The notes under the pieces are model-generated. The model was given only the letters and a program-made list of their open reading frames with translations. It was not told the DNA's origin and ran no database searches. The position numbers were made by a program, and so were the translations under genes. From NCBI RefSeq assembly GCF_014280175.1, contig NZ_CP047931.1, positions 300,001-332,000 on the forward strand: 32,000 nucleotides of DNA. Direction: 5' to 3'. Of the stretch, positions 13,108-25,218 are shown piece by piece; the stretch's first letter is position 1, and each line of letters opens with the position of its first letter. The stretch is from Synechococcus sp. A15-28 (GTDB taxonomy: Bacteria > Cyanobacteriota > Cyanobacteriia > PCC-6307 > Cyanobiaceae).

Positions 13108-13605
13108 TCAGTCTTCGCCCTCGCTTTCGCTGGGTTCCGGGCTGGGCTCGATTGAGGGAGTCGGTTCCGTCGGCTCCTTGTCGTCTGATTCGGGGCGCAC
13201 CCATTTCTTCCCGGACACGCCTGATTTCCCAGCGGGCTTCAGTTGCTTGGCCATGCCCCCGAGGCCTTCGGAAAGACCTCCGGCGGCGCTGCCGAGCTGG
13301 CGCAGACCTGTCAACCAGTGGTCCACCGACCGCAGCCGCGCCTGTTCCTCGTCACTGAGGGCTCGCCAGCGGGCCTGCCCCACTTCCGCACTGAGCCGAC
13401 TGATCAGGAGTCCGCCACAGAGGACCGCCAGCATCGGAGCTCCCCGTAACCGGTCGCTGCTGGTCACCAGCACCAGACCCAGCAGCAGAACAACAGCTCC
13501 CCACACCCCGTCTCGCGGCCGGCTCAGTTCCACCGCCAGCAGGGGCAGCAAAAGCAGGGCGAGACCGAACAGCAGGCAAACGTCGCCGCTCAGGGTCGCA
13601 AGCAT
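13108..13605 (-). CDS. ycf66: Ycf66-like membrane protein with an acidic P/E/S-rich tail
   Basis: 165 aa. The two or three N-terminal TM segments with SRPRDG...RL...LCGGLL resemble Ycf66. The C-terminus is low complexity. Confidence 0.5.
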   Translation of the reverse strand: MLATLSGDVCLLFGLALLLLPLLAVELSRPRDGVWGAVVLLLGLVLVTSSDRLRGAPMLAVLCGGLLISRLSAEVGQARWRALSDEEQARLRSVDHWLTGLRQLGSAAGGLSEGLGGMAKQLKPAGKSGVSGKKWVRPESDDKEPTEPTPSIEPSPEPSESEGED

Positions 13606-13660
13606 CGGTGACGCTGAATCATCTGCTCCATTGTGGATCGCTCCGTAAGCTCAGTGCTCA

Positions 13661-13706
13661 GCCCACCTGGCGGAATTGGTAGACGCGCTGGTTTTAGGTA
13701 CCAGTG
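13661..13706 (+). repeat. attL: orphan 5' half of tRNA-Leu(UAG), 46 bp identical to 24053-24098
   Basis: GCCCACCTGGCGGAATTGGTAGACGCGCTGGTTTTAGGTACCAGTG matches the intact tRNA exactly from the acceptor 5' strand through the anticodon stem-loop. Identity ends at 13707/24099. Confidence 0.95.
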
Positions 13707-13752
13707 ACTACCTTAGTAATTGCAACGTGTTTGAGGCTTTATTCGACACGGT

Positions 13753-13806
13753 TTGCCAAAATCTTGCCAAATAAGCTGCTTAAGTCCGGCTTGCCAAAGG
13801 TGAGAT
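13753..13806 (+). repeat. Three direct TTGCCAAA repeats inside attL (candidate arm-type recombinase sites)
   Basis: TTGCCAAA occurs at 13753, 13764 (11-bp spacing) and 13791. The same motif is tandemly repeated at 23903 and 23914 next to attR. Confidence 0.5.
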
Positions 13807-13912
13807 CTGGGAAAACCTAATGTTTTCTCTCTCTCTCGGAAGACCGAGAGGCTTTGAAGGACGAATTTCTGGAGGACTTCTCCATGGGCGTGCCTTTTGG
13901 AGCCCCAGACCT

Positions 13913-13993
13913 TCACTCACCCATCGCTGATTGAAGAATGTTCTTTGCAGCATTCACATCAGCGTTCTCGGTGTGTCCGCATTTCAGGCACTG
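13913..13993 (-). pseudogene. tnpB: tnpB (IS200/IS605-family) 3' fragment: second zinc-ribbon Cys pair to stop
   Basis: The minus frame reads QCLKCGHTENADVNAAKNILQSAMGE-stop, the canonical TnpB C-terminus (CxxCGh..nADvNAAxNI). No upstream TnpB sequence adjoins it. Confidence 0.75.
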
Positions 13994-14001
13994 GAGTTGA
14001 G

Positions 14002-14178
14002 ATGATAGGAAGGTATCATGCACCTGGTTCTTTAGAGGGTTGGATAGTCTTAAAGACTGATGATCCCAAAGCAATATATCAACATGCAGCTGAATGGGGT
14101 GAATTCTTGAATTGGGAGACCACACCTGTATTTACTGATGAGGAAGCTGGTCAAATAGTCGCCAAAATCAACAATTAG
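14002..14178 (+). pseudogene. Truncated small gene, DUF3303-like C-terminal half
   Basis: MIGRYHAPGSLEGWIVLKTDDPKAIYQHAAEWGEFLNWETTPVFTDEEAG resembles only the C-terminal half of DUF3303-type ~90-aa proteins. The N-terminal 35 codons of listed ORF 13897..14178 are antisense to the tnpB fragment. Confidence 0.35.
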
Positions 14179-14231
14179 AGAACGATTGACAGTCGATCTA
14201 CAATAAGGGGAATTAGCTCCTTTTTATTTTT

Positions 14232-15401
14232 ATGGGCACTGATGAAGATGAAAAAGTAATTGTGAATACCAAAGACTTACTTGAACGGGCTCGTGATGGC
14301 CTTAAGATCGCCCTTGTTTATGCGGGTGATAAAAATGAGCCCGACGCTGTAATCGAGCGACAAATCAACAGCCGAGATTGGAAAAGTTATCGAGTAGTCG
14401 CTGAAAATATCGCTGAGACGCTCGAAGCAGAGGGGTTCTCCGATGTGGTTGTATTGCCCGAGGACCGTCACCTCGGAGACGTAATAAGTAGATCCAATAT
14501 CGACTTAGTCTGGCTGAATTCTGGTGGGGTCCAAGGAATTAATCCAATGGCGCATGCTCCTGCGCTGTTAGAAATGTTAGGTGTCCCTTACATTGGCCAT
14601 AACCCACTAGCCGTATCAATTCTCGACAATAAGCACGTGTTTAAGAGTATGTGTATGGCTGCATCCTTGCCAACAGCTCGATCTGTGGTGATCGATCCGA
14701 GCTCTGAAGGCTGGAATTTCATTTACTCAGAACACTTCGAGTCAGTATTTTATGGGTTCCCAGGACCGTTTGTGATAAAGCCGGTAAGTGGCCGGGCTTC
14801 GAAGAACGTGTATTTCGTTGACTCAAAAAGGGAGGTAAAGCATGCGGTGGAGAAGGTTTGGAACGAAACAAACTACCTCTGCCTTGTAGAGGAATATCTC
14901 CCTGGAAGGGAATTCGCGATCTCAATTATGGGGTCGCGTGTGCGTCAAGATGGAGAATTCGTAATCCATGATGGACCCTTCGCGTTCTCCGCCGTCCAGC
15001 GCGTTTTTGAGCCTCATGAAAAGATCTTCGCTTCGATGGATGAGAAGCCGATTACCGACGACCGCATTCGGTTACTTGATCTCTCTCGCGAGTCGGGGTT
15101 AATCCGTGAGATGGAGCATCTGGCTCGCCAAGTCTTTGCATGGTTCACATTAAGTAGCCTGGTCCGACTCGACTTGCGTGAATCAGGTGATGGAGAGCTT
15201 CATCTTTTGGAAGCCAATCCAAAACCTGATTTAAAACGCCCGTCCGAGCACTCAGCCAGTATTACTTGCAGAGGATTAGCTCAGCGGAAAATGTCATACG
15301 CGGATTTGATAGTGTCAATTCTCGCTGAACGCTTGACAGTGTTAGCAAAGACCGGAAAAAAAGATTCCGCAATCCTTAAGAAACTGATGGTCACTTCGTA
15401 A
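14232..15401 (+). CDS. ATP-grasp ligase, D-alanine--D-alanine ligase family-like
   Basis: 389 aa. LLEMLGVPYIGHNPLAVSILDNKHVFK, FVIKPVSGRASKNVYFV, LVEEYLPGREFAISIMG and LRLDLRE...LHLLEANPKPDL follow the Ddl-type ATP-grasp layout. The gene is AT-rich. Confidence 0.75.
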   Translation: MGTDEDEKVIVNTKDLLERARDGLKIALVYAGDKNEPDAVIERQINSRDWKSYRVVAENIAETLEAEGFSDVVVLPEDRHLGDVISRSNIDLVWLNSGGVQGINPMAHAPALLEMLGVPYIGHNPLAVSILDNKHVFKSMCMAASLPTARSVVIDPSSEGWNFIYSEHFESVFYGFPGPFVIKPVSGRASKNVYFVDSKREVKHAVEKVWNETNYLCLVEEYLPGREFAISIMGSRVRQDGEFVIHDGPFAFSAVQRVFEPHEKIFASMDEKPITDDRIRLLDLSRESGLIREMEHLARQVFAWFTLSSLVRLDLRESGDGELHLLEANPKPDLKRPSEHSASITCRGLAQRKMSYADLIVSILAERLTVLAKTGKKDSAILKKLMVTS

Positions 15402-15419
15402 AAATTTTCGAATTGTACA

Positions 15420-15814
15420 GAAAAGTTCTTGGCTTGGCCTGTTTCCTGCTTCTGTGTGACCGCAGACGCTGCACCGTTGGCTGGTGTACTTCGGGTCTAC
15501 CCGCACAATATTCCTGCCGCGTTCTTTGCCCTTCTCTTCAAGCTCCGTATTAGCTGGCCAAGACCTGCATCAGCCATTGAGCGATTGAGCCCACCTTTTG
15601 CTGCGGCTTGATTCAGCAGGAACGTGCCAGATCCATCTTCTGCTGGTTTGGGCTTAGGACGGCGGGTCATGCTCGCTAATTTCAGGTCTTTAATCGCGAG
15701 TGTTCCGTAGGTCCGCAGCAAATAGGTGCTGGTCTTATGCGCAAACAGCTTGCGGGTGCGGCGGATCTTCTCGTGCAAATTCTGGATCTCTTGGGGATTA
15801 TGCGAATAGTGCAT
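15420..15814 (-). pseudogene. tnpB: tnpB central fragment (RuvC-like region to first zinc-ribbon Cys pair), frameshifted
   Basis: LHEKIRRTRKLFAHKTSTYLLRTYGTLAIKDL...LNRSMADAGLGQLIRSLKRRAKNAAG is followed, after a frameshift near 15510, by IVRVDPKYTSQRCSVCGHTEAGNRPSQELF. The roughly 250 N-terminal residues are missing, and the expected catalytic Glu of the EDL motif is Lys. Confidence 0.75.
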
Positions 15815-15895
15815 TTATTAGGCCACTTGCAACTTTTGATGCCTATTTAATTGCCTTCTGAATTAAATTATTGGCTAAGTGTCTAAAGCTCTCGG

Positions 15896-17437
15896 ATGAC
15901 GATCACTTCATATTCCAATACTGACTATCGGTCAGTCGCCGACTACGAGAGCTACGATCTCCTTCAAGATTACTCGGGCTATGACAATGTTATTGAATAT
16001 TATATTCAAGGTGTCGCAGAAAATTACTATCCTGAATACGTCAATAATATCCTTGATTTCTCCTCTGAGGAAAAGAAGTATATTCGCTTTGCGATGGGCG
16101 ATTTCAGTCGATTGACTGGCGCCCAGTTTGTTGAGACAAATGATTTTGATTCAGCAGTTATCAACTTAATTAAGATCGATAGTTATAACGATGGTGATTA
16201 TGTAGGTCTGAACTCACCAGAGGACGGATGGATCGACATCTCTTGGGTGAATTCTGGTGGAGATAAAATGACTGAATATGAAAAGTGGCTGATATGGCAT
16301 GAAGTTGGACATTCAACAGGCATAATGCATCCCAACAATGATGACAGCCACTCGGATCAATACTTTACCAATAAGATCTCAGTGATGTCGGACAATGAGA
16401 CTAATTTCTACCCAACAAGTTTAAGAGATCTTGATATTCAGGCGATGCGTAACGTCTGGGGGCAAACATCCTCTCCCGCCTTTATTCGAAGCGATGATCC
16501 GACTTTGCCAACATTGTCAACCATTGAATCTGAAGGTAATACTGAGCTTCTGAAGGACTCTTCAGGCAATGCCTATGTACGCCAAGATGGCTATGAAAAT
16601 CTGCTCACTCTTAGAGACTATGATGGTGTTCAGTATAAAATTGATGGGACGACAAACCAAGCCGCTGGTGAGCGGGAAATATTAGCAGCTGAACGTATCG
16701 ATGGTATAGATCAAGTTCTGTGGGGCTATTTCGGCGGTGAATCTACGCCAAGCGAATACCGTGTTTACGAAAATGATTTGTGGGGAGAGCCTGATACTGA
16801 CTACTATTGGTATGAAACAGGTGAATCCGATATTTACGAAATTGGTACACCAGGTTTTGATCAAATAGCCACGTCATTTGGTATTGAGGCTCCTTCTGCG
16901 CCAACACCAACACCAACTCCAACTCCAACACCTGAAACTAGTTCGGATATAGATGTTCCTGTCAATAAAAAATGGTCTAAATACTTATGGAAAAAGTCTG
17001 GAAAGGATGGAATTATTGATTACTATGCTGACAAGAAAGGAAAGTTAGATAAAAAACAAAATACAAAAATTGCCAAGAAAACTCTTTCATTTGTTGATGA
17101 CATGCTTGATGAAACCGAGTCAATCTTGGGACTAGAATTCAATAAAGTAAAGAAAAGTAAGCAGGCTGACATTGTCTTCCAAGCCAAGTCAAAAAGCAAA
17201 GACGCGACAACTTATAAGACTAAATATGGCATGGAAGTCTCATTTTCTAAGACTCAAAAGAAGCCTACGCAGTACGACATGCAAGACATTAATTATCTCA
17301 CCGGATACGCTCTTGGCCTCAAGGATTTGAAGGGAAATTCTTACGATGCCGCCGACTCAGTCATGGCAGCTAACTATAGTGATGAATATCTAGGATGGTC
17401 CAATAATGATATAAAAGCTCTTCAGTCCATATGGTGA
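15896..17437 (+). CDS. Metzincin-type zinc metalloprotease fused via a PT-repeat linker to a Lys-rich, catalytically degenerate second metzincin-like domain
   Basis: HEVGHSTGIMH (16298-16330) matches HExxHxxGxxH, with a downstream SVMS Met-turn candidate and DIQAMRNVWG. A (PT)5 linker lies at 16901-16933. The C-terminal domain repeats the layout, but YLTGYALGLKD replaces the zinc site. No N-terminal signal peptide is apparent. Confidence 0.7.
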   Translation: MTITSYSNTDYRSVADYESYDLLQDYSGYDNVIEYYIQGVAENYYPEYVNNILDFSSEEKKYIRFAMGDFSRLTGAQFVETNDFDSAVINLIKIDSYNDGDYVGLNSPEDGWIDISWVNSGGDKMTEYEKWLIWHEVGHSTGIMHPNNDDSHSDQYFTNKISVMSDNETNFYPTSLRDLDIQAMRNVWGQTSSPAFIRSDDPTLPTLSTIESEGNTELLKDSSGNAYVRQDGYENLLTLRDYDGVQYKIDGTTNQAAGEREILAAERIDGIDQVLWGYFGGESTPSEYRVYENDLWGEPDTDYYWYETGESDIYEIGTPGFDQIATSFGIEAPSAPTPTPTPTPTPETSSDIDVPVNKKWSKYLWKKSGKDGIIDYYADKKGKLDKKQNTKIAKKTLSFVDDMLDETESILGLEFNKVKKSKQADIVFQAKSKSKDATTYKTKYGMEVSFSKTQKKPTQYDMQDINYLTGYALGLKDLKGNSYDAADSVMAANYSDEYLGWSNNDIKALQSIW

Positions 17438-17672
17438 TTGCGCTGTATTTGCTGCATATTTATAGACGTTGAACTCATTGATGCTTGCCCAAGGTGAGAG
17501 CCTAAACATGCTTTAAGGCAAGTAATATCTATTCTGAAATCTCCCAGTACGACAGCAGAAAGTCATATCTTGCGAGTATTGATATTTCCAGTTTTGGGTA
17601 AATGTGTTGGCGCCTAAGGGCGAATGCCTGGACGAGCTCCCCCCGGAGTAAGGGGGGGGGGCTAAAGGATCT

Positions 17673-18272
17673 TCAGCACGCCGCCACCTCCTGTTCAGAA
17701 ATGATCCGACGGATCGTTGAGAGCGCCAGTCCCGTCTGCTCTCGAATGGAGCGATAGGAGCACCCCTCGTCCCTTAAGCGCAGAACCAGGCGTTCTTTTG
17801 CCTGATTGGTTTTGGGGCGACCGCCAATAGATCCGCCAGTCGCCTTTCGGTGCTGGATGCTCTCCATCACGCGATCCCTGGTCATCTCGCGTTCCACCTC
17901 ATTCAGTCCAGTCAGCAGACCAATGAGGACGGGTGCCATCTTTCCCATCGCCTTGGTGTTTACCAATCCATCCAGAGTTCGGACGTGAATGCCTTCCTCC
18001 TGCAAGTCGTGAAGACGGTTGATCACCTCACGCTGTGTCCTTCCAAGGCGTGAAAGAGCGGTAATGACGAGTTCGTCTCCTTCCACGACTGCATTGAGTG
18101 CTGCCTGCAGTTGGTGGCGGTCTTTCTCTGCTGTGCGGGTGCTAACGATCTCCTGGAAGACCACAGCGCACCCTGCATCCTTCAACGCCTTGACCTGAAC
18201 CTCCAGACCGGCCGCTTGCTTGGTGTCGCCACCGCCGCTGGTTCTTGCATAACCAATGCTTCGGGAGGTCAC
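17673..18272 (-). CDS. Small serine recombinase (resolvase/invertase family) with C-terminal HTH
   Basis: 199 aa with IGYARTS (catalytic Ser), GDELVITALSRLGR, EREMTRDRV and a C-terminal HTH (GCSYRSIREQTGLALSTIRRI). It is visibly GC-richer than neighbouring island DNA. Confidence 0.85.
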   Translation of the reverse strand: MTSRSIGYARTSGGGDTKQAAGLEVQVKALKDAGCAVVFQEIVSTRTAEKDRHQLQAALNAVVEGDELVITALSRLGRTQREVINRLHDLQEEGIHVRTLDGLVNTKAMGKMAPVLIGLLTGLNEVEREMTRDRVMESIQHRKATGGSIGGRPKTNQAKERLVLRLRDEGCSYRSIREQTGLALSTIRRIISEQEVAAC

Positions 18273-18393
18273 TGTTCCAAAAAGGGTTGTTCCAGAAACA
18301 ATAGCAACAAAACACTGTTAATGGAACACTCATATCCCAGTGGCAGCAGTTTTTTGTGAGTGTTCTTGTTTCCGATCGGTTGTTGGAACACTC
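18271..18393. repeat. Cluster of GGAACA(CTC)/TGTTCC repeats upstream of the serine recombinase (candidate res/crossover sites)
   Basis: TGGAACACTC occurs at 18322-18331 and 18384-18393, with the inverted GAGTGTTC at 18358-18365. TGTTCCA lies at 18273 and TGTTCCAG at 18288. Confidence 0.35.
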
Positions 18394-18640
18394 CTGAACT
18401 AGCGCCAAAGCTGATGAAGCATTCGACCACCGACAGATGGCGGAGGCATTCCGCAAACGCATCAAGGTCTTTCCTGGCGCCTACATCAACCTCAGGTGCA
18501 CCACTCCGCGCCACCTCGAGCCCGATGTGTCCTGAGACGAGCAGATCAGTAACGGCACGAACAGTAACTGTGTCAATTAGCAGATTGTCACCTAGCTTTT
18601 AAAATGCTGTTCACTTCTCAAGAGCGGGCAGACGCGGGTG

Positions 18641-19018
18641 CTAATTGAGCCACTGCGACGGGATCTCTGGCCCAATTGAGTATGGGAAGCCGTGCCTCTT
18701 CGCCCACATCGAGAAGGTGGTGGAGCTGTTCTTGGCGATGGGTCGGTCGTTATAAAACAAGAAGCGCAGATCTAAGTCCTCGTTCTGCTCAGATGCCTTT
18801 TGATATTTGGCTCTATCTTCTGCACTCATCGAGCCACCTTTGCACTCAACATAGAAGTCTTGACCTTCAACTCTGAAGTCTGGCGTGTAGTGATGGTGGC
18901 TGACATAGTGAGTTCTTTTTGGCTCGTAATCGAAACAATGCCCATTCTCGACCAGGTTCTCTGCAACCAGATATTCGAACTTGCTTCTAAAGCCGTTCCA
19001 AGCTTGTAAAGATGACAC
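18641..19018 (-). CDS. Phage T7 endonuclease I (gp3)-like Holliday-junction resolvase
   Basis: 125 aa that aligns along its length with T7 gp3: FRSKFEYLVAENL..., HYTPDF, FYVECKG, DLDLRFLF, and a C-terminal IPSQWL versus IPAEWI. The catalytic E, D, E and K positions are all present. Confidence 0.8.
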   Translation of the reverse strand: MSSLQAWNGFRSKFEYLVAENLVENGHCFDYEPKRTHYVSHHHYTPDFRVEGQDFYVECKGGSMSAEDRAKYQKASEQNEDLDLRFLFYNDRPIAKNSSTTFSMWAKRHGFPYSIGPEIPSQWLN

Positions 19019-19210
19019 TGTAACTGCGCTTGACTAAGTTAAATATAGCGCAAGAATGCAGTCACAGGAACGGATAAAAGGCGAGCAGGAAGTCTATCTA
19101 GACCAGTAATAAGGCAGAAAGAGCTTGTTTGTATGTATTTTTAATTGCACGTAGGCATTTGACTGCATGTAGCTTAGAGCAGAGTTAAAGCAACTCATAC
19201 GAAGGAGAGA

Positions 19211-19528
19211 CCTCAAATATCTCAATCTCAACCTCAACCTTTTTTCGTGTATGGATATTTTCATGCCTGTGGCACTGATTTAACGCTCCAATCAGGTTCT
19301 TTTCCCCCTTTCCTCTCTTTAACTTCTTTTACTTAAAAAGGTTGATCAGGTTAAGACAGATGGGCTGAAGTGCTGTCATGCCAATGGATCAAGAGCATCT
19401 CAACCTAGTGTCTCAACCTCGCCTCAACCTCAACTAAAAAGGCATCAAACGGGTCCAACGGTGGAAGGGAAGCATCTCAACCTTCAGCAATCACGCAGGT
19501 TGAGATGGAGGTTAAGCAGGAGGTTAAG
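19211..19528. repeat. Iteron-like array of CTCAACCT / AGGTTRAG 8-mers (candidate replication origin)
   Basis: Forward CTCAACCT occurs at 19227, 19233, 19399, 19412, 19423 and 19476. Inverted AGGTT(G/A)A(G/T) occurs at 19339, 19348, 19497, 19509 and 19521. An 11-bp inverted repeat pairs 19473-19483 with 19497-19507. The array is non-coding and lies just 3' of the primase-helicase gene. Confidence 0.6.
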
Positions 19529-19536
19529 AGCGGCAT

Positions 19537-21006
19537 TCATTCTGATTGGTGCCAGTAATAACCACGAACGCCATTGATTGTCTTCTGCTGGTCATCTTTG
19601 CGGAAACCCTTTGCTTGCAACAAGGCGGCCATACGCATTTCTTCCCTTCGTCCTAGCTTCTCTTCCCAGCCGTCAAACCCGACGCCCCTCAATGCATCCA
19701 GGGTAGTGAAATATTCATGAGGTTCCTTATCAATAACACCATATTCATTCATACCTAACAACCATTTATCGAGCCATTTATCGAGCTTCGCACTCCACAT
19801 ATCTTCAGGCAAGTAGCCTTTGTTTTGTTGGTTAGATAGCTCTTGATTCTCTAACGAAAGCATGGGCTTTTCACCAGCACGATAGGCGAGAATTGCAGCC
19901 TTCCAGATGCGATCTCTGTCTCGAGCTACAAGTTCAACAGGGATAAATTCTTGTTTCTGGGCCTTCTGCGGAAGCGAGAGTACTTGGAAGCGTCTGTTCC
20001 CGCTTGGATCTCTTAAAAAGTCATCTCCATTGACGCTCGAAACCATAATGCTGCGGCGATTATCACGCTCAATGTTTCGTCCATAGGGTTTCTTGATCAT
20101 GTCCGATGCAGTAGTGATCAGGGCTTTTAATTCGCCCACACCTTTCTTGCTGGTGATGTTTTCAAGCTCTGCAAGTTCAAAGATCCAACAGCTGTGCATA
20201 TTCATGATCATCTCTTTGTTGTCCTTTGGCGTTGAATCGCAGAACCACAACGGGCTGCACAATATTTTCCAGAATGTAGATTTTCGGATGCCCTGATCAC
20301 CTTTGAGAACCACAACAGTGTCAAACTGGCATCCAGGCTCAAACCGCCTTGCAACTGCACCCAGTAATGCCACCTTCATCATCTGATCACTCAGATTCGA
20401 TTCAGTATTTAGGTAATTAGTCGCAATTTTATTTATATCGACAGGCTCTACATCATCTGCTTTCTCCAGATATTGCAAATAATCGAGTACTGGGTCATAG
20501 CGATGCTTCTGAGCAACTCTGAGCAGACCATCACACCATGGCTTTTGTTCGAAGTTCCAGCCTTGCTGCTGCATATCTGCATAAGAGACCAGAGTTTCAT
20601 CTTCTGGAAGTGCAACGCCACCGAACTCATAAACACGCGCCAATTCATTCAGCTTGAGATGGCTGCCTACGTACTTCTCCAGCAGGGTTATGACCGCACC
20701 AGCGTTCAACCGTGGAGCAGGTCTCTGTTCACCGTTTTCATCCAGCTCCTGGGGGAACAAACCGACCGTCTTGATTAACCCAGACAGCCCACCACTTTCT
20801 GGTGCTGCTATTGCCCTGACTGGTTCGCTGTAGCCGTTTTTCTTGGCCTCCTTGATCAGAGTTCCAATTCCGACGCCTTCACCCGGCGCCTTCTCGCTGA
20901 AGCTGTCCCACTTCTGCACAAACTCCGATTCATCGAAGTTGCTCATTGGCCTGCTCCACTCAACCCAGTCATTGAGCAGACCTTCGTCAACGCTGTGCAG
21001 CGCCAT
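19537..21006 (-). CDS. PriCT-2 / VirE-family P-loop NTPase (primase-associated helicase-like) C-terminal part of replication protein
   Basis: 489 aa. WVEWSRPMSNFDESEFVQKWDSF...IGTLIKEAKKNGY is PriCT-2-like, followed by a VirE-like core with the Walker A motif LKGDQGIRKSTFW. PriCT-2 similarity continues upstream of the Met to the TAA at 21055-21057. Confidence 0.8.
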   Translation of the reverse strand: MALHSVDEGLLNDWVEWSRPMSNFDESEFVQKWDSFSEKAPGEGVGIGTLIKEAKKNGYSEPVRAIAAPESGGLSGLIKTVGLFPQELDENGEQRPAPRLNAGAVITLLEKYVGSHLKLNELARVYEFGGVALPEDETLVSYADMQQQGWNFEQKPWCDGLLRVAQKHRYDPVLDYLQYLEKADDVEPVDINKIATNYLNTESNLSDQMMKVALLGAVARRFEPGCQFDTVVVLKGDQGIRKSTFWKILCSPLWFCDSTPKDNKEMIMNMHSCWIFELAELENITSKKGVGELKALITTASDMIKKPYGRNIERDNRRSIMVSSVNGDDFLRDPSGNRRFQVLSLPQKAQKQEFIPVELVARDRDRIWKAAILAYRAGEKPMLSLENQELSNQQNKGYLPEDMWSAKLDKWLDKWLLGMNEYGVIDKEPHEYFTTLDALRGVGFDGWEEKLGRREEMRMAALLQAKGFRKDDQQKTINGVRGYYWHQSE

Positions 21007-21054
21007 CCCAACCTTGAGCCAGTTGTCGTAGTCCTCAAAGTCAGCTGGAGAGAG

Positions 21055-21792
21055 TTACTTCAGAGCAGCAAGCGCCTTTTGTCTGTTGTGTTCTTGTTCT
21101 GCGTCTGAAAGATCTTTCTGAGGCTTAGGGCAGTTCTTAGGCAGATAAGAGTCAGTCTCCAAGAGAGCTTCCAACAACCACTCATGAGCTTCTGCAACGT
21201 CCACCTCTTGTGGTGAGCAGCCCTTTACCCAGCGGTAGCCACCTGTTTCTGGATGCTTTCCAGCAATGACGCTTTGCAGATTTGATCCTTGAGCGGGAAA
21301 GCGGGCCTCAAAAACTATGGATCCGCCTTGCCTCCACTGCCTGTGTCTGAGCTTGTCCCGCCACGCAGATGGAACTGAGAAAGCAATCTGACGCCGGTCT
21401 GGTTTTCCGCTGGTCCAAGCGAGGGAGGAAGGTAAATCAGAGGAGGGTCGCCCGAACAGACGCAGGAATTCCTCTTCTGAACCTGGACCGTCAAAGTCAA
21501 TCGCACCAACCCCTAAAGATCTTTCACCGAGGATCAATCCAACGGCTTTTGGTTGCATCTGTTGAATCTGTTCTGCCGTATATCCCTCGAATCCTTTCCA
21601 CTTCAGTTCACTGTTGGTTTTGTAGTCCCATGGAACTTTGTTGTCATCGACTGGGAGATAGCGCCATTCTTTTGGACAGGCACTTAGATCTTCATACTGG
21701 TTGCTATGACAGGTTTTGTCTGCCTGTTCTGGATATAATGAGGCAGGGGAATCCGCCTGCTGATTAGCTTCAAACATTTTTAATTTAAGCAA
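21055..21792 (-). CDS. Bifunctional primase-polymerase (Prim-Pol) domain protein
   Basis: 245 aa with AVGLILGERSLGVGAIDFDG and FEARFPAQGSNLQSVIAGKHPETGGYRW, which fit the Prim-Pol N-terminal domain pattern. It is in the same frame as the downstream ORF, separated by one stop codon. Confidence 0.75.
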   Translation of the reverse strand: MLKLKMFEANQQADSPASLYPEQADKTCHSNQYEDLSACPKEWRYLPVDDNKVPWDYKTNSELKWKGFEGYTAEQIQQMQPKAVGLILGERSLGVGAIDFDGPGSEEEFLRLFGRPSSDLPSSLAWTSGKPDRRQIAFSVPSAWRDKLRHRQWRQGGSIVFEARFPAQGSNLQSVIAGKHPETGGYRWVKGCSPQEVDVAEAHEWLLEALLETDSYLPKNCPKPQKDLSDAEQEHNRQKALAALK

Positions 21793-21828
21793 GATTACTG
21801 GTGCAGCTGTTGACGCAGCTGTGCTTTT

Positions 21829-22011
21829 TTATTTGTGGAGTTGAAGGGGCAAGTGTTCAATTGCGATCTGACGAACCAGTCCGCTCAACGTTGTTTCGCG
21901 CGATTGAGCTCTGCGGTGTAGCTCATCACGAAATTGTCTTGAACAGCGGATTTTGATGTCAGATTCCTGCAAACAGGAGATGTATCCAGGTGCCATGAAT
22001 AATCGTTTCAT
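21829..22011 (-). CDS. Ribbon-helix-helix (CopG/Arc-like) DNA-binding protein
   Basis: 60 aa. IKIRCSRQFRDELHRRAQSRETTLSGLVRQIAIEHL fits a beta-strand, helix, helix RHH layout. Confidence 0.55.
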   Translation of the reverse strand: MKRLFMAPGYISCLQESDIKIRCSRQFRDELHRRAQSRETTLSGLVRQIAIEHLPLQLHK

Positions 22012-22061
22012 TCATATCTTCAACGTACCGCACAAATTCCCTATCTGTTTGAGTTTCTTGC

Positions 22062-22388
22062 TCATAATGAACCTCCACAATTCAGCTTGTACGACTCAAA
22101 ATCTTTCACGGCCTTTGCCGCGTGATAGTGCCTACGCACTCCCGATTTTGTTGGTTTCTCCCTGATGGATTCTGCTTTAAAGACTCCCATCTTCGCTAGT
22201 CGGCAGATGTGATCAGGGTGTTTCCCAACCAGCTGCCCAAACTCTTTTGGAGATAGCCATTTAGTGGGAGAAGGGTATGTAATCGCCCGCCTAATCTCCT
22301 CAAGCTTTTTGGACTGTTCTTTCATATGGCTTTCTATCGAAGCCAGTGTCAAGTGAAATCCTTGACTGGATGTAGAGGGATTGTGCAT
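22062..22388 (-). CDS. xis: Excisionase-type helix-turn-helix protein (Xis/AlpA-like)
   Basis: 108 aa. KWLSPKEFGQLVGKHPDHICRLAKMGVF...RRHYH resembles excisionase-family HTH_17 domains. It sits between the integrase and the replication genes. Confidence 0.55.
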   Translation of the reverse strand: MHNPSTSSQGFHLTLASIESHMKEQSKKLEEIRRAITYPSPTKWLSPKEFGQLVGKHPDHICRLAKMGVFKAESIREKPTKSGVRRHYHAAKAVKDFESYKLNCGGSL

Positions 22389-22657
22389 CCGTCGATATTT
22401 GTACTGAACCCTTCTTATCGGATGAAATCGTCTTCTGTTTGAGTTTTTCTAGGTTTTTGTGGCTGTGATGTTCTGCTCAGCTTTAGCGGTATAGAGCAAA
22501 AGCTAAAACTATGCCAGTTTTAACCAGTTATAATTGTCAAATTCCGTATGCGGTCTAGCTTCTTTGGTCTGAGGCACTGCATAGTGTGCAGGTGATCATG
22601 AAGATATTGAAGAAACTCTGGAGAAAATATTCGTACCATGTTGTCAGGAATCTCAGA

Positions 22658-23854
22658 TCAGTCGAGGATTATTAGCTTTGCGAGCACATCCTCTTCTTGC
22701 ATCGCTGTGATCTCTTGCAAGTAAGTATTTTCGTGCGTCTGCATTGAATGTCCCATAGCTCTGGCGGCTAGATAAGTGTCGAAACGTTTTAGTGCCGCTT
22801 GTATTCCCCAGTAATGCCTGACTCCAAGCTTGTTGTACTCAGGCCAAATCTTTCTAGCTGCTTTTGCGGCTTCACTGTCCCTCAGAAATGCTCTCCACCT
22901 GTTCTCGAAGCATTTCACTCTTGAACTGCTGCGTTGTGTGTTTTTCAGAGGCTTTAGAGCTTCAGTGTATTCATCAGGAGTTGTCCAGCGAAAGTCTCCA
23001 GGTATGTACACATTCGTGAGTTCATAGCGTTCAACCCACTTCATCGAGAGTGCAATGGCGGTTCTTGTGTTTTGAGGTCCACCTTCTCTCTTATCGATCG
23101 TTAAGCAGTCCGCAAGCTTCCCTCCCAGCTTTGGAACTAGGGATGCGGTTTCATTTACTCGGCAGCCGTATATCGCATGTGCTGCAGTGCACCAGCCCCA
23201 TTCAGTTCCTTGAAGTGCGTCTAGGAATGCTTGAAGCTGTTCCAAGCTTTCTGGAACGGCACGTTTTGGTGCTTTGTATTTTGCTTTGATTTCTAGAATT
23301 GCGGTTGTGTTTAAAGAGTTGGCCTTCGCGATTTGTAGAGCTGCGGATTTCTCTTTTTTTCTCCTGTTACTTCCTGCGGGCGCTCTCTCAACAAGTGCGA
23401 CCAAAAGTTCGCTGGTCAAGCTGGCGTTTTCGTAACCCTTCAACAGTCCTCGAACGGTGTAGCCCTTCCGGGTGAATCCATCGTTTGTATTTGGCTTCAG
23501 ATCGTGGTCGGCTCTCTCGCGCCTCTCCCACTCCGCAATGGCTTCTGAGCCGGTTAAGGGTGTGTTCTGTGCTTTGAGGGCTGTCTGACGTGCTTTAAGG
23601 GATGCTTTTGGGTCGCCTCCTGCCTTGATGACGATCCAGGCCTCTCGCGCCAGTTCCTTGGCTTCTTCGATGCCCGCGGAAGTGGCTTTGATCCCTAGCG
23701 CTATTCGTTGAGACTTTCTCTCTTGCCCAATAGAAGCCCAGGTTCCTCTTAGATAAAGAGTTCCGGTTTGTTCTGGTCGCTGGATCTTCAGTGGTATGCC
23801 GCCCATCGCCAAAAACTCATTGGCTTGCTTGATGGCTGAGTCAATGTTCGTCAT
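22658..23854 (-). CDS. int: Tyrosine recombinase / integrase
   Basis: 398 aa. The C-terminal catalytic region has YGCRVNE (Arg I), GVRHYWG (Arg-His) and MGHSMQTHENTYL (His and the Tyr nucleophile). It is adjacent to attR and the tRNA. Confidence 0.85.
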   Translation of the reverse strand: MTNIDSAIKQANEFLAMGGIPLKIQRPEQTGTLYLRGTWASIGQERKSQRIALGIKATSAGIEEAKELAREAWIVIKAGGDPKASLKARQTALKAQNTPLTGSEAIAEWERRERADHDLKPNTNDGFTRKGYTVRGLLKGYENASLTSELLVALVERAPAGSNRRKKEKSAALQIAKANSLNTTAILEIKAKYKAPKRAVPESLEQLQAFLDALQGTEWGWCTAAHAIYGCRVNETASLVPKLGGKLADCLTIDKREGGPQNTRTAIALSMKWVERYELTNVYIPGDFRWTTPDEYTEALKPLKNTQRSSSRVKCFENRWRAFLRDSEAAKAARKIWPEYNKLGVRHYWGIQAALKRFDTYLAARAMGHSMQTHENTYLQEITAMQEEDVLAKLIILD

Positions 23855-23887
23855 CTAACTGCTCGCAGACCGTTGAAATCCTTAAGA

Positions 23888-23923
23888 ACTTGCCTCGTGG
23901 GACTTGCCAAAAACTTGCCAAAT
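23888..23923 (+). repeat. Tandem ACTTGCCAAA repeats between int start and attR (candidate arm-type sites / int promoter-operator)
   Basis: ACTTGCC(tcg) lies at 23888, with ACTTGCCAAA at 23902 and 23913 (11-bp spacing). The core 8-mer and orientation match the repeats at 13753-13799. Confidence 0.5.
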
Positions 23924-24052
23924 CCGGGGGTGACATAACCCGATTTATCGGATCACTAGAGGACAGTCAACTCCACCGCCTCGCTTCGCTGAAACCCCAA
24001 ACAGGCTGGCCTTTCTAAGGTTTAAGTCGTATTCGACTATCATTCAGTTCAA

Positions 24053-24134
24053 GCCCACCTGGCGGAATTGGTAGACGCGCTGGTTTTAGGTACCAGTGGC
24101 CTTGGTCGTGGGGGTTCAAGTCCCCCGGTGGGCA
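24053..24134 (+). tRNA. tRNA-Leu (anticodon UAG), class II with long variable arm
   Basis: Cloverleaf read by hand. The acceptor pairs GCCCACC with GGTGGGC. The anticodon stem pairs CTGGT with ACCAG around loop TTTAGGT. The variable arm is long and the T arm is GGGGG-TTCAAGT-CCCCC. No CCA is encoded. Confidence 0.93.
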
Positions 24135-24186: not shown

Positions 24187-25218
24187 ATGACACAGAGCTC
24201 TGCTCTCCATCAGCAGCCTCGTCCGGTCCCTACGGGGTATCGATCAGTGCCGCGTGAATTCGTGGATCCACCCGCTGCCTGGAATCCCACCGTTGCGCTG
24301 TTCCTCGGTGGATATGTCCTGGCGGGCTTCACGATCTGGGGCTGGTTTCTGGGTGGCCTGCCGCTGCCGTTTCTTCTTTGCACGGGCTTTCTGGCCCTGC
24401 ATCTGGAAGGAACCGTGATCCATGACGCCTGCCACAACGCGGCGCATCCCAACCGCTGGATCAATCAGGCGATGGGACACGGTTCAGCCCTGCTGCTGGG
24501 TTTCAGCTTTCCGGTGTTCACCCGTGTGCACCTGGAGCATCACGCCCATGTGAACGATCCCAAGAACGATCCCGATCACATCGTCAGCACGTTCGGGCCC
24601 CTTTGGCTCATCGCGCCGCGCTTTTTCTATCACGAGTGGTTTTTCTTCCAGCGGAGGTTGTGGAAGCGCTGGGAACTCATGCAGTGGGGATTTGAGCGCA
24701 GCGTGTTTGTGGTGATTGTCCTGGCTGCCGCACGCTTTGAGTTTCTCCCCTTCATCTTCAATTGCTGGTTTGCCCCGGCTCTGATGGTGGGTGTGACCCT
24801 CGGGCTCTTCTTTGATTACCTGCCCCATCGCCCCTTCACATCCAGAAACCGCTGGACTAATGCCCGGATCTATCCGGGGCGTCTGATGAACTGGTTGATC
24901 ATGGGCCAGAACTATCACCTGGTTCATCACCTGTGGCCATCGATTCCCTGGTTTGAGTACAAGCCTGCCTACGAAGCCACCAAGCCTCTCCTTGATTCGA
25001 AGGGATCACCTCAGCGTCTGGGAATCTTCGAGACGCGTCGGGATGGATACAACTTCCTCTACGACATTCTTGTGGGCGTCCGCAGCCACAAACGTCGCCG
25101 CGGAAAGATGCGTCGTGCAGCGCGATTCATGCCGATGCGATCTCTTCAACGCCACTGGCTGGGATTTGTTGATCGCATTGCCATCAAAACCGAGCCAAGG
25201 CGACCGATCAATCGCTGA
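24187..25218 (+). CDS. crtR: Beta-carotene hydroxylase (CrtR-type, fatty-acid-desaturase fold)
   Basis: 343 aa with three histidine boxes (HDACHN, HLEHHAH, HLVHHLWPSIPW) and TM segments. Confidence 0.8.
   Translation: MTQSSALHQQPRPVPTGYRSVPREFVDPPAAWNPTVALFLGGYVLAGFTIWGWFLGGLPLPFLLCTGFLALHLEGTVIHDACHNAAHPNRWINQAMGHGSALLLGFSFPVFTRVHLEHHAHVNDPKNDPDHIVSTFGPLWLIAPRFFYHEWFFFQRRLWKRWELMQWGFERSVFVVIVLAAARFEFLPFIFNCWFAPALMVGVTLGLFFDYLPHRPFTSRNRWTNARIYPGRLMNWLIMGQNYHLVHHLWPSIPWFEYKPAYEATKPLLDSKGSPQRLGIFETRRDGYNFLYDILVGVRSHKRRRGKMRRAARFMPMRSLQRHWLGFVDRIAIKTEPRRPINR

Follow-up and report, generated by a model that had tools for sequence, protein, structure and literature searches.

A probable tycheposon-type integrative element upstream of tRNA-Leu(UAG) in Synechococcus sp. 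A15-28

The locus described here lies in a stretch of 32,000 nucleotides (nt) of the genome of Synechococcus sp. A15-28 (NZ_CP047931.1), called the window below, and all coordinates are window positions. In the window, an AT-rich island stands between a ycf66-like gene on one side and tRNA-Leu(UAG) and crtR, the gene for beta-carotene hydroxylase, on the other. A repeat finder showed that the island is bounded by a direct repeat of 47 nt, 100% identical, at 13660-13706 and 24052-24098, with a start-to-start spacing of 10,392 bp. Since the repeat ends inside tRNA-Leu and only the right copy continues into a whole tRNA, the repeat is composed of one upstream base and nt 1-46 of tRNA-Leu(UAG). 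It contains the 5' strand of the acceptor stem, the D arm, the entire anticodon stem-loop and two more nt. By plain counting, the anticodon stem consists of C28-T32 and A40-G44 around a loop of T33-T39, and the block of identity ends 2 nt 3' of this stem. A single complete tRNA-Leu(UAG) was called at 24053-24134 on the forward strand by ARAGORN and by Rfam (tRNA, 55 bits), and neither program called a tRNA at the left copy. The GC content is 0.40-0.54 between the repeats vs 0.60-0.68 in the flanks. An initial annotation, made from the letters alone, had already described an AT-rich island between two copies of a 46-bp repeat, of which only the right one continues into a complete tRNA; its description holds, with the repeat one base longer.

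The undisturbed form of the site was found by looking up the CrtR protein of the window in public assemblies, the contigs of which included the TARA, KOPF and HARO sets. In ten contigs from metagenomes or metagenome-assembled genomes (MAGs), here L001-L010, a 165-amino-acid (aa) ycf66-like gene, tRNA-Leu(UAG) and crtR are directly adjacent. Apart from a single mismatch, positions 9820-10000 of L001 correspond to window 13615-13706 followed immediately by 24099 and the sequence after it. The island was inserted precisely, with a duplication of 47 bp. As the flanks of the ten contigs are 99.4-99.7% identical to those of the window, their sequences mark them as empty alleles from the same population. 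The synteny of ycf66, tRNA-Leu and crtR is also kept in more distant Synechococcus genomes, and the closest among the matches listed was L044, Synechococcus sp. AG-670-A05, with 87.5% identity. The initial annotation had predicted both the ancestral order ycf66, tRNA-Leu, crtR and an empty site in which 13661-13706 runs directly into 24099 onward; all ten contigs have this order and this junction. It had also held that an insertion would be untenable if relatives that lack the island had no intact tRNA-Leu at this place, and in these relatives the tRNA is present between ycf66 and crtR.

Four more contigs carry integrases of the same family as the one found in the island (L011, L017, L018 and L019/L020). 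In L011, L017 and L018, the start of the integrase gene again faces the 5' end of tRNA-Leu(UAG) at a distance of about 200 nt, and the integrases are about 74-97% identical to that of the window. The junction thus recurs in other hosts. Among the window and these three contigs, the element side of the junction is conserved and the 3' half of the tRNA exists in three forms, GCCTTGG... in the window, ACTTCGGTTGTGCGAG... in L011 and L017, and GCTTCGGTCG... in L018, each of which is a native host variant in sequenced genomes. Because a conserved element side is joined to 3' halves that vary with the host, the 5' half travels with the element and the 3' half belongs to the host. The rebuilt tRNA gene is, on this comparison, a chimera of an element-side 5' half and a host 3' half. 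These three additional right-end junctions with differing host 3' halves bear out the earlier proposal that the element supplies the 5' half. At the locus itself, the upstream flank of the host remains with the orphan 5' half, and element DNA stands before the working tRNA. L017 shares 97.3% identity with the window over a length of 2.3 kb, although it carries a different host tRNA variant, and L148, which comes from another sample, is 99.7% identical to the window interior (15363-23542) over 8.2 kb. These two identities point to recent movement of the element between lineages. Searches for the integrase elsewhere gave no match in a GTDB genome scan with the integrase alignment and no relative among the INPHARED phages with tblastn; the INPHARED matches found with blastn were only the tRNA-Leu genes of the phages themselves.

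The open reading frame (ORF) next to the intact tRNA, at 22658-23854, encodes a protein of 398 aa that had been annotated as a tyrosine integrase. Pfam, PHROGs and NCBIfam contain no match to it, and the identification was confirmed by profile search and structure prediction instead. A word-indexed protein search found only seven homologues, and an exhaustive profile search of 1.84 billion representatives found 621 relatives. In an alignment of 60 sequences (A3), G229, R231, E234, R345, G367, H368 and Y377 are invariant, of which R231, R345, H368 and Y377 form the Arg/Arg/His/Tyr signature of tyrosine recombinases. The first His of the HxxR motif is, by eye, not conserved in A3, and the window protein has L at this position. 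A match to PF00589 was found in 14 of the 60 relatives, with a best E value of 6.7e-9. The AlphaFold model built on the 60-sequence alignment has a mean predicted local distance difference test score (pLDDT) of 89.7 and shows the two-domain fold of a core-binding and a catalytic domain. Its best Foldseek matches in the PDB were XerA, Tn1549 Int, full-length lambda Int, XerH and Cre (E 3e-6 to 1e-3), together with IntI, and the top 28 matches were all tyrosine recombinases with a probability of 0.99-1.00. On the basis of the 621-member family, the invariant R/R/H/Y residues, the PF00589 matches of relatives and the fold matches of the model, the 398-aa protein is identified as a divergent tyrosine integrase.

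The model aligns with lambda Int over its full length (387-392 columns), with a sequence identity of only 13%. Its N-terminus is modelled as a three-stranded sheet (strands 22-24, 31-38 and 46-55) followed by a helix, and the integrase probably has a lambda-like N-terminal arm-binding domain; the Pfam Arm-DNA-bind_3 match of the window protein is insignificant (E 0.049). Several relatives, including P0009 and P0014, have precomputed Pfam matches to XisAC_N and XisAC_2nd. The relative P0001, 98% identical to the window integrase, bears the JGI name 'uncharacterized Ntn-hydrolase superfamily protein'. The Pfam DUF1028 match of the window integrase is at chance level (E 0.028) and may be the origin of this name.

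The distribution of the 46 nt shared by the orphan half and the tRNA was followed in a scan of a genome collection. The 46-mer was found in at least 120 genome stretches: 117 of those listed lead into a complete tRNA, the end of the stretch truncates two more, and another has a single base difference in the acceptor strand. No clear orphan copy was found among the at least 120 stretches listed. The possibility raised in the initial annotation that the left copy is part of a dispersed repeat was rejected, since among the matches listed the 46-mer belongs to complete tRNAs. At least 117 species-level genomes, from Prochlorococcus, Synechococcus and Cyanobium, share identical nt 1-46 of tRNA-Leu(UAG). 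Nt 6 is the sole variable site in the 5' part, with C in 85 vs T in 32 of the intact genes listed, where T gives a U6-G wobble pair; this polymorphism was considered as a marker of the crossover and rejected, as both alleles are native. Among genomes that share the 46-mer, more than 30 variants of the 3' 36 nt are found, with compensatory changes in the T stem; this contrast between the halves is biased because the genomes were chosen by the 46-mer itself. Two of the stretches with this picocyanobacterial 46-mer, L047 (CALPNT020000071.1) and L066 (NZVR01000007.1), are labelled as Bifidobacterium breve and Blastopirellula MAGs. The upstream region of L047 is nearly identical to that of the cyanobacterial MAG L045, and both contigs are probably mis-binned.

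Both ends of the island carry short repeats. The sequence TTGCCAAA has six copies in the window vs 1.27 expected in the whole window, and five of the six lie no further than about 150 nt from an end of the island, each of them on the forward strand (13753, 13764 and 13791 on the left; 23904 and 23915 on the right). These repeats are candidate arm-type integrase sites. A block of 54 nt, 23901-23954, is invariant in the window, L011, L017 and L018, though the elements are only 73-97% identical overall (L018, 73%). In all four elements, GACATAACCCGATTTATCGGATC (23930-23954 in the window), with the palindrome CCGAT-TT-ATCGG, is located between the integrase start and the tRNA, and it may be an operator or a site for an accessory protein.

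The initial annotation had proposed that the element also provides the promoter of the rebuilt tRNA and had pointed to the hexamer TATCAT. This hexamer occupies -15 to -10 from nt 1 of the tRNA, and each of the four elements has a TAnnnT, either TATCAT or TACTAT, that begins at -15. The empty site L001 has TAAGCT at the same distance (-15). Of 113 distinct native upstream regions among the matches listed, 69 have a TAnnnT that begins at -15 or -14, and such a box is rare at other positions. Because TAnnnT is kept at -15, the position of the native -10 boxes, it is plausible that the element supplies the promoter through TATCAT; this supports the earlier proposal, and the function of the box as a promoter is suggested by its position. 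A terminator scan predicted none at either junction, including the stretch between the stranded host promoter and the forward-strand cargo genes. A hairpin, CTCTCGG-AAGA-CCGAGAG, was seen at 13833-13851, about 130 nt past the orphan tRNA half; it has no T-run and was not called as a terminator.

Table 1. Features of the tRNA-Leu(UAG) locus and of the inserted element, in window positions
Feature	Position	Strand	Basis
ycf66-like host gene, left flank	13108..13605	-	Pfam Ycf66_N E 1.7e-5; same 165-aa gene beside tRNA-Leu in empty-site contigs
Host TAAGCT, -10-like box at -15..-10 of orphan half; presumed native promoter, stranded	13646..13651	+	Read from sequence
attL core: orphan 47-bp repeat copy	13660..13706	+	Repeat finder; no tRNA called
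Integrative element body, 10,345 bp, low GC	13707..24051		Absent from L001-L010; GC profile
TTGCCAAA in three direct copies, candidate arm-type sites of the integrase (P' arm)	13753..13798	+	Repeat count
DUF3303 ORF, probably 5'-truncated (profile positions 32-90 of 92)	13897..14178	+	Pfam E 1.6e-18
Cargo: ATP-grasp, D-Ala-D-Ala-ligase-like, 389 aa	14232..15401	+	Pfam Dala_Dala_lig_C E 9e-12; NCBIfam Ddl subfamily E 2e-22
Decayed IS605-family TnpB remnant	15342..15814	-	Pfam OrfB_IS605 E 6.7e-8; Cas12f1-like_TNB E 2.5e-6
Cargo: 513-aa protein, HEVGHSTGIMH (HExxHxxGxxH) zinc-protease motif, PT-rich linker	15896..17437	+	Weak Pfam Peptidase_M10, Astacin, E 4e-3 to 5e-3
Small serine recombinase (resolvase/invertase type)	17673..18272	-	Pfam Resolvase E 1.9e-27; PHROG DNA invertase
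T7 endonuclease I-like junction-resolving nuclease	18641..19018	-	Pfam Phage_endo_I E 6e-19; PHROG 945 E 7.5e-32
Replication module: PrimPol (21055-21792) and PriCT_2/VapE helicase (19537-21006)	19537..21792	-	Pfam Prim-Pol E 2.8e-11, VapE-like E 1.5e-60
Possible ribbon-helix-helix regulator, 60 aa	21829..22011	-	Weak Pfam NikA-like E 0.009; homologous ORF in L011; function inferred
Conserved small protein beside int, 108 aa, candidate excisionase or helix-turn-helix regulator	22062..22388	-	Function inferred from position
Tyrosine integrase, 398 aa, divergent, inward-facing	22658..23854	-	Profile search, invariant residues, fold model
Block invariant in four elements: two TTGCCAAA and GACATAACCCGATTTATCGGATC; candidate P-arm sites and/or int operator	23901..23954	+	Alignment A2
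Element-borne TATCAT, -10-like box at -15..-10 of rebuilt tRNA	24038..24043	+	Position conserved in four elements
attR core: second 47-bp repeat copy, 5' part of working tRNA	24052..24098	+	Repeat finder
Complete chimeric tRNA-Leu(UAG), 5' part from element side, 3' part from host	24053..24134	+	ARAGORN, Rfam; 3' half and downstream flank match empty site
crtR (beta-carotene hydroxylase), right host flank	24187..25218	+	NCBIfam BCarotHydoxCrtR E 6.6e-155, above cut-off

The genes of the element are listed in Table 1. The ATP-grasp protein scores below the cut-offs for true Ddl in Pfam and NCBIfam. Its gene is part of a sharply bounded segment of 1,238 bp (14185-15421) that is 99.4% identical to positions 824-2061 of L150, where the flanks have about 31% GC and are unrelated to the window. 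Since L150 shares a bounded segment in an unrelated context, the ATP-grasp gene looks like a recently exchanged cassette. The right boundary of the segment, 15421, coincides with a break in the TnpB remnant, and the rest of the TNB zinc-ribbon domain of TnpB is found at 13913-14002 on the reverse strand. The two parts, TNB profile positions 21-40 and 39-60, are 1.4 kb apart, with the DUF3303 fragment and the ATP-grasp cassette between them; a subsequent insertion or rearrangement has apparently divided the tnpB gene. The HExxHxxGxxH motif of the 513-aa cargo protein was read from the translation, and homologues of the protein exist. In L148 (534-2074) the gene for this protein is split into 383 and 149 aa and in the window it is intact, and the PrimPol-VapE gene of L148 (4173-6413) is a single ORF of 746 aa. 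The 108-aa protein beside the integrase has a motif, WLxPxEF...G.F...R.K..KSG, in common with equivalent ORFs of L020, L141 and L146, in which an ORF of this type also comes after the integrase. Pfam and PHROGs scans of 9-10 ORFs revealed no virion or packaging gene (terS, terminase, capsid, portal), and the PADLOC models of defence systems gave no match in the element.

Relatives of the integrase are associated with other tRNA genes. P0184, with 30% identity to the window integrase (E 1e-30), is encoded just downstream of tRNA-Ser(UGA) in a Prochlorococcus-like genome of 34-37% GC. P0014 (31% identity), encoded in L141 (ERZ16272832 k119_3183860), faces the 5' end of tRNA-Arg(CCU), and the element there has the order integrase, small ORF, VapE, resolvase and cargo, as in the window element. 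The other relatives that were checked adjoin the 3' end of tRNA-Ser or tRNA-Arg. Because P0014 faces the 5' end of a tRNA and the others a 3' end, both geometries are seen, from these gene positions, within the integrase clade. The cargo of L141 comprises HEPN, DUF499 and DUF1156 genes, which are defence-like. More distant relatives of about 500 aa with a C-terminal extension are found in prophage-like regions in L012, L013 (P0007) and L144 (P0171). The region in L012 contains a terminase, a primase, Rad52 and a TacA/acetyltransferase pair, and that in L144 a Prim-Pol primase, RusA and a lysozyme. No tRNA was found near the integrase relative in L012 or L144, and Rfam found no partial tRNA beside the phage-borne relative in L142.

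The interpretation preferred here, with a probability of roughly 0.85, is that the island is a 10.4-kb tycheposon-type integrative element inserted into tRNA-Leu(UAG) through site-specific recombination by the tyrosine integrase. The phage-type attachment site (attP) of the element would carry nt 1-46 of the tRNA and one upstream base, and its predicted junction reads ...GTCGTATTCGACTATCATTCAGTTCA + AGCCCACCTGGCGGAATTGGTAGACGCGCTGGTTTTAGGTACCAGTG + ACTACCTTAGTAATTGCAACG... Recombination with the chromosomal gene would leave the host 5' half and the host promoter stranded at the left end, and the working gene at the right end would be rebuilt from the element-borne 5' half and the host 3' half. 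As the block of identity stops 2 nt past the anticodon stem, strand exchange would take place in the anticodon loop and the two arms of the stem would serve as inverted core sites, the mirror of the usual anticodon-centred attachment (att) site. The N-terminal domain of the integrase would bind the direct TTGCCAAA repeats on both arms, and the rebuilt tRNA would probably be transcribed from the element-borne TATCAT at -15. Judged by its position, the 108-aa protein could be the directionality factor or excisionase. The window copy would still be mobile; an empty allele exists in the same population, and an element with 97% identity occupies a different host tRNA variant.

Several observations weigh against parts of this interpretation. 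The 398-aa ORF matches no curated integrase family: it has no match in Pfam even at E <= 10 and none in PHROGs, NCBIfam or the PDB sequences; the missing PF00589 match reflects the limited sensitivity of the Pfam model and no defect of the structure. As both repeat copies are identical, the window sequence gives no position for the crossover. The left junction is known from the window alone. A second left junction was sought through the ATP-grasp gene: its 99% homologue in L150 proved to have the unrelated 31% GC context described above, and no database record was found for the exact ATP-grasp protein. Neither a circular form nor an attP junction was found; IMG/VR contains no match to the integrase alignment or the 46-mer, and the single scan of metagenomes was aimed at the integrase. 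A scan for the full sigma-70 consensus found no promoter upstream of either repeat copy, and the argument for the -10 box is drawn from four related sequences. The 108-aa protein matches no family, and its single-sequence model (pLDDT 71.6) has no fold match. The window copy also contains TnpB debris and a split primase-helicase: a TAA stop at about 21052-21054, a 2-nt difference from L148, divides PrimPol-VapE into 245 and 489 aa. On this evidence, the window copy may be starting to decay.

How far such decay has gone is the subject of one alternative, according to which the integration was real and the present copy is a fixed, decaying remnant that can no longer replicate or move. The stop codon in a PrimPol-VapE gene that is intact in L148, the TnpB fragments and the truncated DUF3303 gene would fit this scenario. 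However, the repeats are identical at 47 of 47 positions, the ORF of the integrase is unbroken and has 97-98% identity to copies found elsewhere, and 48 nt past the stop the helicase ORF begins anew. The empty allele is moreover frequent in the population of the window copy, which speaks for a very recent insertion, and the scenario of a remnant is considered possible but rather doubtful. Less probable still is that the element is a phage satellite, a tycheposon resembling phage-inducible chromosomal islands (PICIs) that needs a helper cyanophage for its packaging. A core of integrase, primase-helicase and small regulators is also that of PICI-like elements (bioRxiv 10.1101/2020.12.28.424599), and P0007, with 27% identity to the integrase, is encoded in a prophage-like region with a terminase. 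Against this, neither Pfam nor PHROGs found terS, capsid or any other packaging gene, IMG/VR contains neither the integrase family nor the att core, relatives of the integrase are missing from the INPHARED phages, and three cargo-like genes on the forward strand occupy the distal half. A satellite is therefore regarded as unlikely.

The two remaining alternatives concern the insertion itself. The element could carry a complete tRNA-Leu of its own and disrupt the host gene, in which case the intact tRNA would be wholly element DNA. Pelagiphages that bring a complete tRNA provide a precedent (HTVC019P, HTVC025P; see below), and the window alone cannot tell the origin of the 3' half by identity. 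The comparison with other contigs can: from the 3' 36 nt onward the window agrees with the empty-site contigs, the 3' half in L011, L017 and L018 varies by host through three native variants while the element side is conserved, and no displaced host 3' fragment is found beyond 24134. This makes a complete element-borne tRNA very improbable. Finally, the insertion might have been catalysed not by the 398-aa protein but by the small serine recombinase (17673-18272). This recombinase is genuine by its Resolvase match (Table 1), and a minority of tycheposon-like elements do use serine recombinases. However, those elements use large serine recombinases and the present one, with 199 aa, has the size of a resolvase or invertase; only tyrosine integrases are known to target tRNA genes (PMC4383910); and it is the integrase, not the resolvase, that is linked to the tRNA junction in all related loci. 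Catalysis by the resolvase-type protein can hardly be credited.

Insertion by the tyrosine integrase, as preferred above, adds a precisely delimited and evidently recent tycheposon-like element to those of marine Synechococcus, with a target, tRNA-Leu(UAG), that is unlisted for the class. The presence of empty and occupied alleles in one natural population offers a clean system for the study of excision and integration in picocyanobacteria. A single divergent clade of integrases, invisible to the Pfam integrase model, contains both 3'-side and 5'-side tRNA integrators, and islands of this sort would escape pipelines built on PF00589 or on the expectation of 3' fragments alone. It is tempting, though speculative and on balance doubtful, to regard the carriage of the 5' half as adaptive, in that it would provide a long perfect target and a correct tRNA in nearly every picocyanobacterium and/or capture a host promoter for the cargo. 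The idea of an adaptive target comes from the identity of nt 1-46 in at least 117 genomes vs more than 30 variants of the 3' 36 nt. If promoter capture were true, the strong tRNA promoter of the host, stranded at the left end, could drive the forward-strand cargo genes, and the element would bring its own -10 box for the tRNA.

Among known recombination systems, lambda-type heterobivalent integrases resemble the window integrase in predicted fold, which aligns with lambda Int over the full length; the modelled N-terminal sheet and helix are similar to an arm-binding domain, and repeated candidate arm sites are found on both sides of the core. The lambda type differs in sequence, with 13% identity, and the relatives of the window integrase carry the Pfam domains XisAC_N and XisAC_2nd instead. 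In the anticodon-centred class of Williams, the crossover occurs in the anticodon loop, the stem arms are the inverted core sites and the edge of the identity block falls just outside the stem. The edge of the window block, 2 nt 3' of the anticodon stem, is where a mirrored site of this class would have it, with identical copies.

The initial annotation had presented the duplication of the 5' rather than the 3' half of the tRNA as a reversal of what most integrases do. The structure is as claimed; its rarity is not, since the geometry, although uncommon, is already documented. In the Islander survey, 3760 islands have a 3' fragment of the tRNA gene (tDNA) and 159 have a 5' fragment (159 of 3919), and the filters of the survey expressly permit a 5' fragment upstream of the tDNA (PMC4383910). 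The window shows the same signature, an intact tDNA with a cognate fragment of nt 1-46 (13661-13706, forward strand) in the same orientation 10.4 kb upstream, an integrase inside and, probably, an anticodon-centred att site. The 10,392-bp repeat unit, with the integrase ORF inside, lies within the Islander range of 2-200 kb. However, the window integrase has no PF00589 match and would escape the Pfam-based integrase filter. For HTVC019P-type pelagiphages, experiments showed integration in which the host tRNA, tRNA-Leu(TAG) among others, receives its 5' part from the phage, and HTVC019P and HTVC025P carry a complete tRNA-Leu of their own with the host gene disrupted (bioRxiv 10.1101/410191). 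In contrast to these complete podoviruses of SAR11, the window element has no virion genes, and its integrase has no INPHARED relative. Islands at dusA likewise replace the 5' end of their target gene and bring putative promoter elements, in their case -10 and -35 elements, and the gene stays expressed (PMC4482086); their target is a protein-coding gene of Proteobacteria, and their integrase belongs to another family. The element is thus a further case of a known island type, and the catalogued mechanism makes it a refinement rather than a surprise.

The closest likeness is to the tycheposons. At the end next to the tRNA, these have a tyrosine recombinase that faces inward; a replication module adjoins it, and the element also carries cargo. 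The labels endonuclease and small serine recombinase appear for genes in the tycheposon figure, and a minority of tycheposon-like elements use large serine recombinases (bioRxiv 10.1101/2020.12.28.424599). Synechococcus cases have been described at tRNA-Phe (PMC8995045). The window element differs in its target, as tRNA-Leu(UAG) is neither among the seven Prochlorococcus targets nor the Synechococcus tRNA-Phe site, and a literature search combining tycheposon, Synechococcus and Leu found nothing relevant. It also lies upstream of its tRNA and duplicates the 5' half, whereas the checked relatives at tRNA-Ser and one at tRNA-Arg are located at the 3' end. In several other respects the two agree. 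Both are picocyanobacterial, specific for a tRNA site, flanked by a full and a partial tRNA and equipped with an inward-facing, divergent tyrosine recombinase, which is followed by a primase/helicase module (PrimPol and VapE in the window) and by distal cargo (ATP-grasp, metzincin-motif and DUF3303 genes in the window). Like the tycheposon recombinase clade, the window integrase has no matches to the common integrase types, and its kinship, judged by pairwise identity, is with P0184, a homologue that adjoins tRNA-Ser(UGA), a published tycheposon target. From its genes and their order, the resemblance of the element to a cargo-type tycheposon appears well supported.

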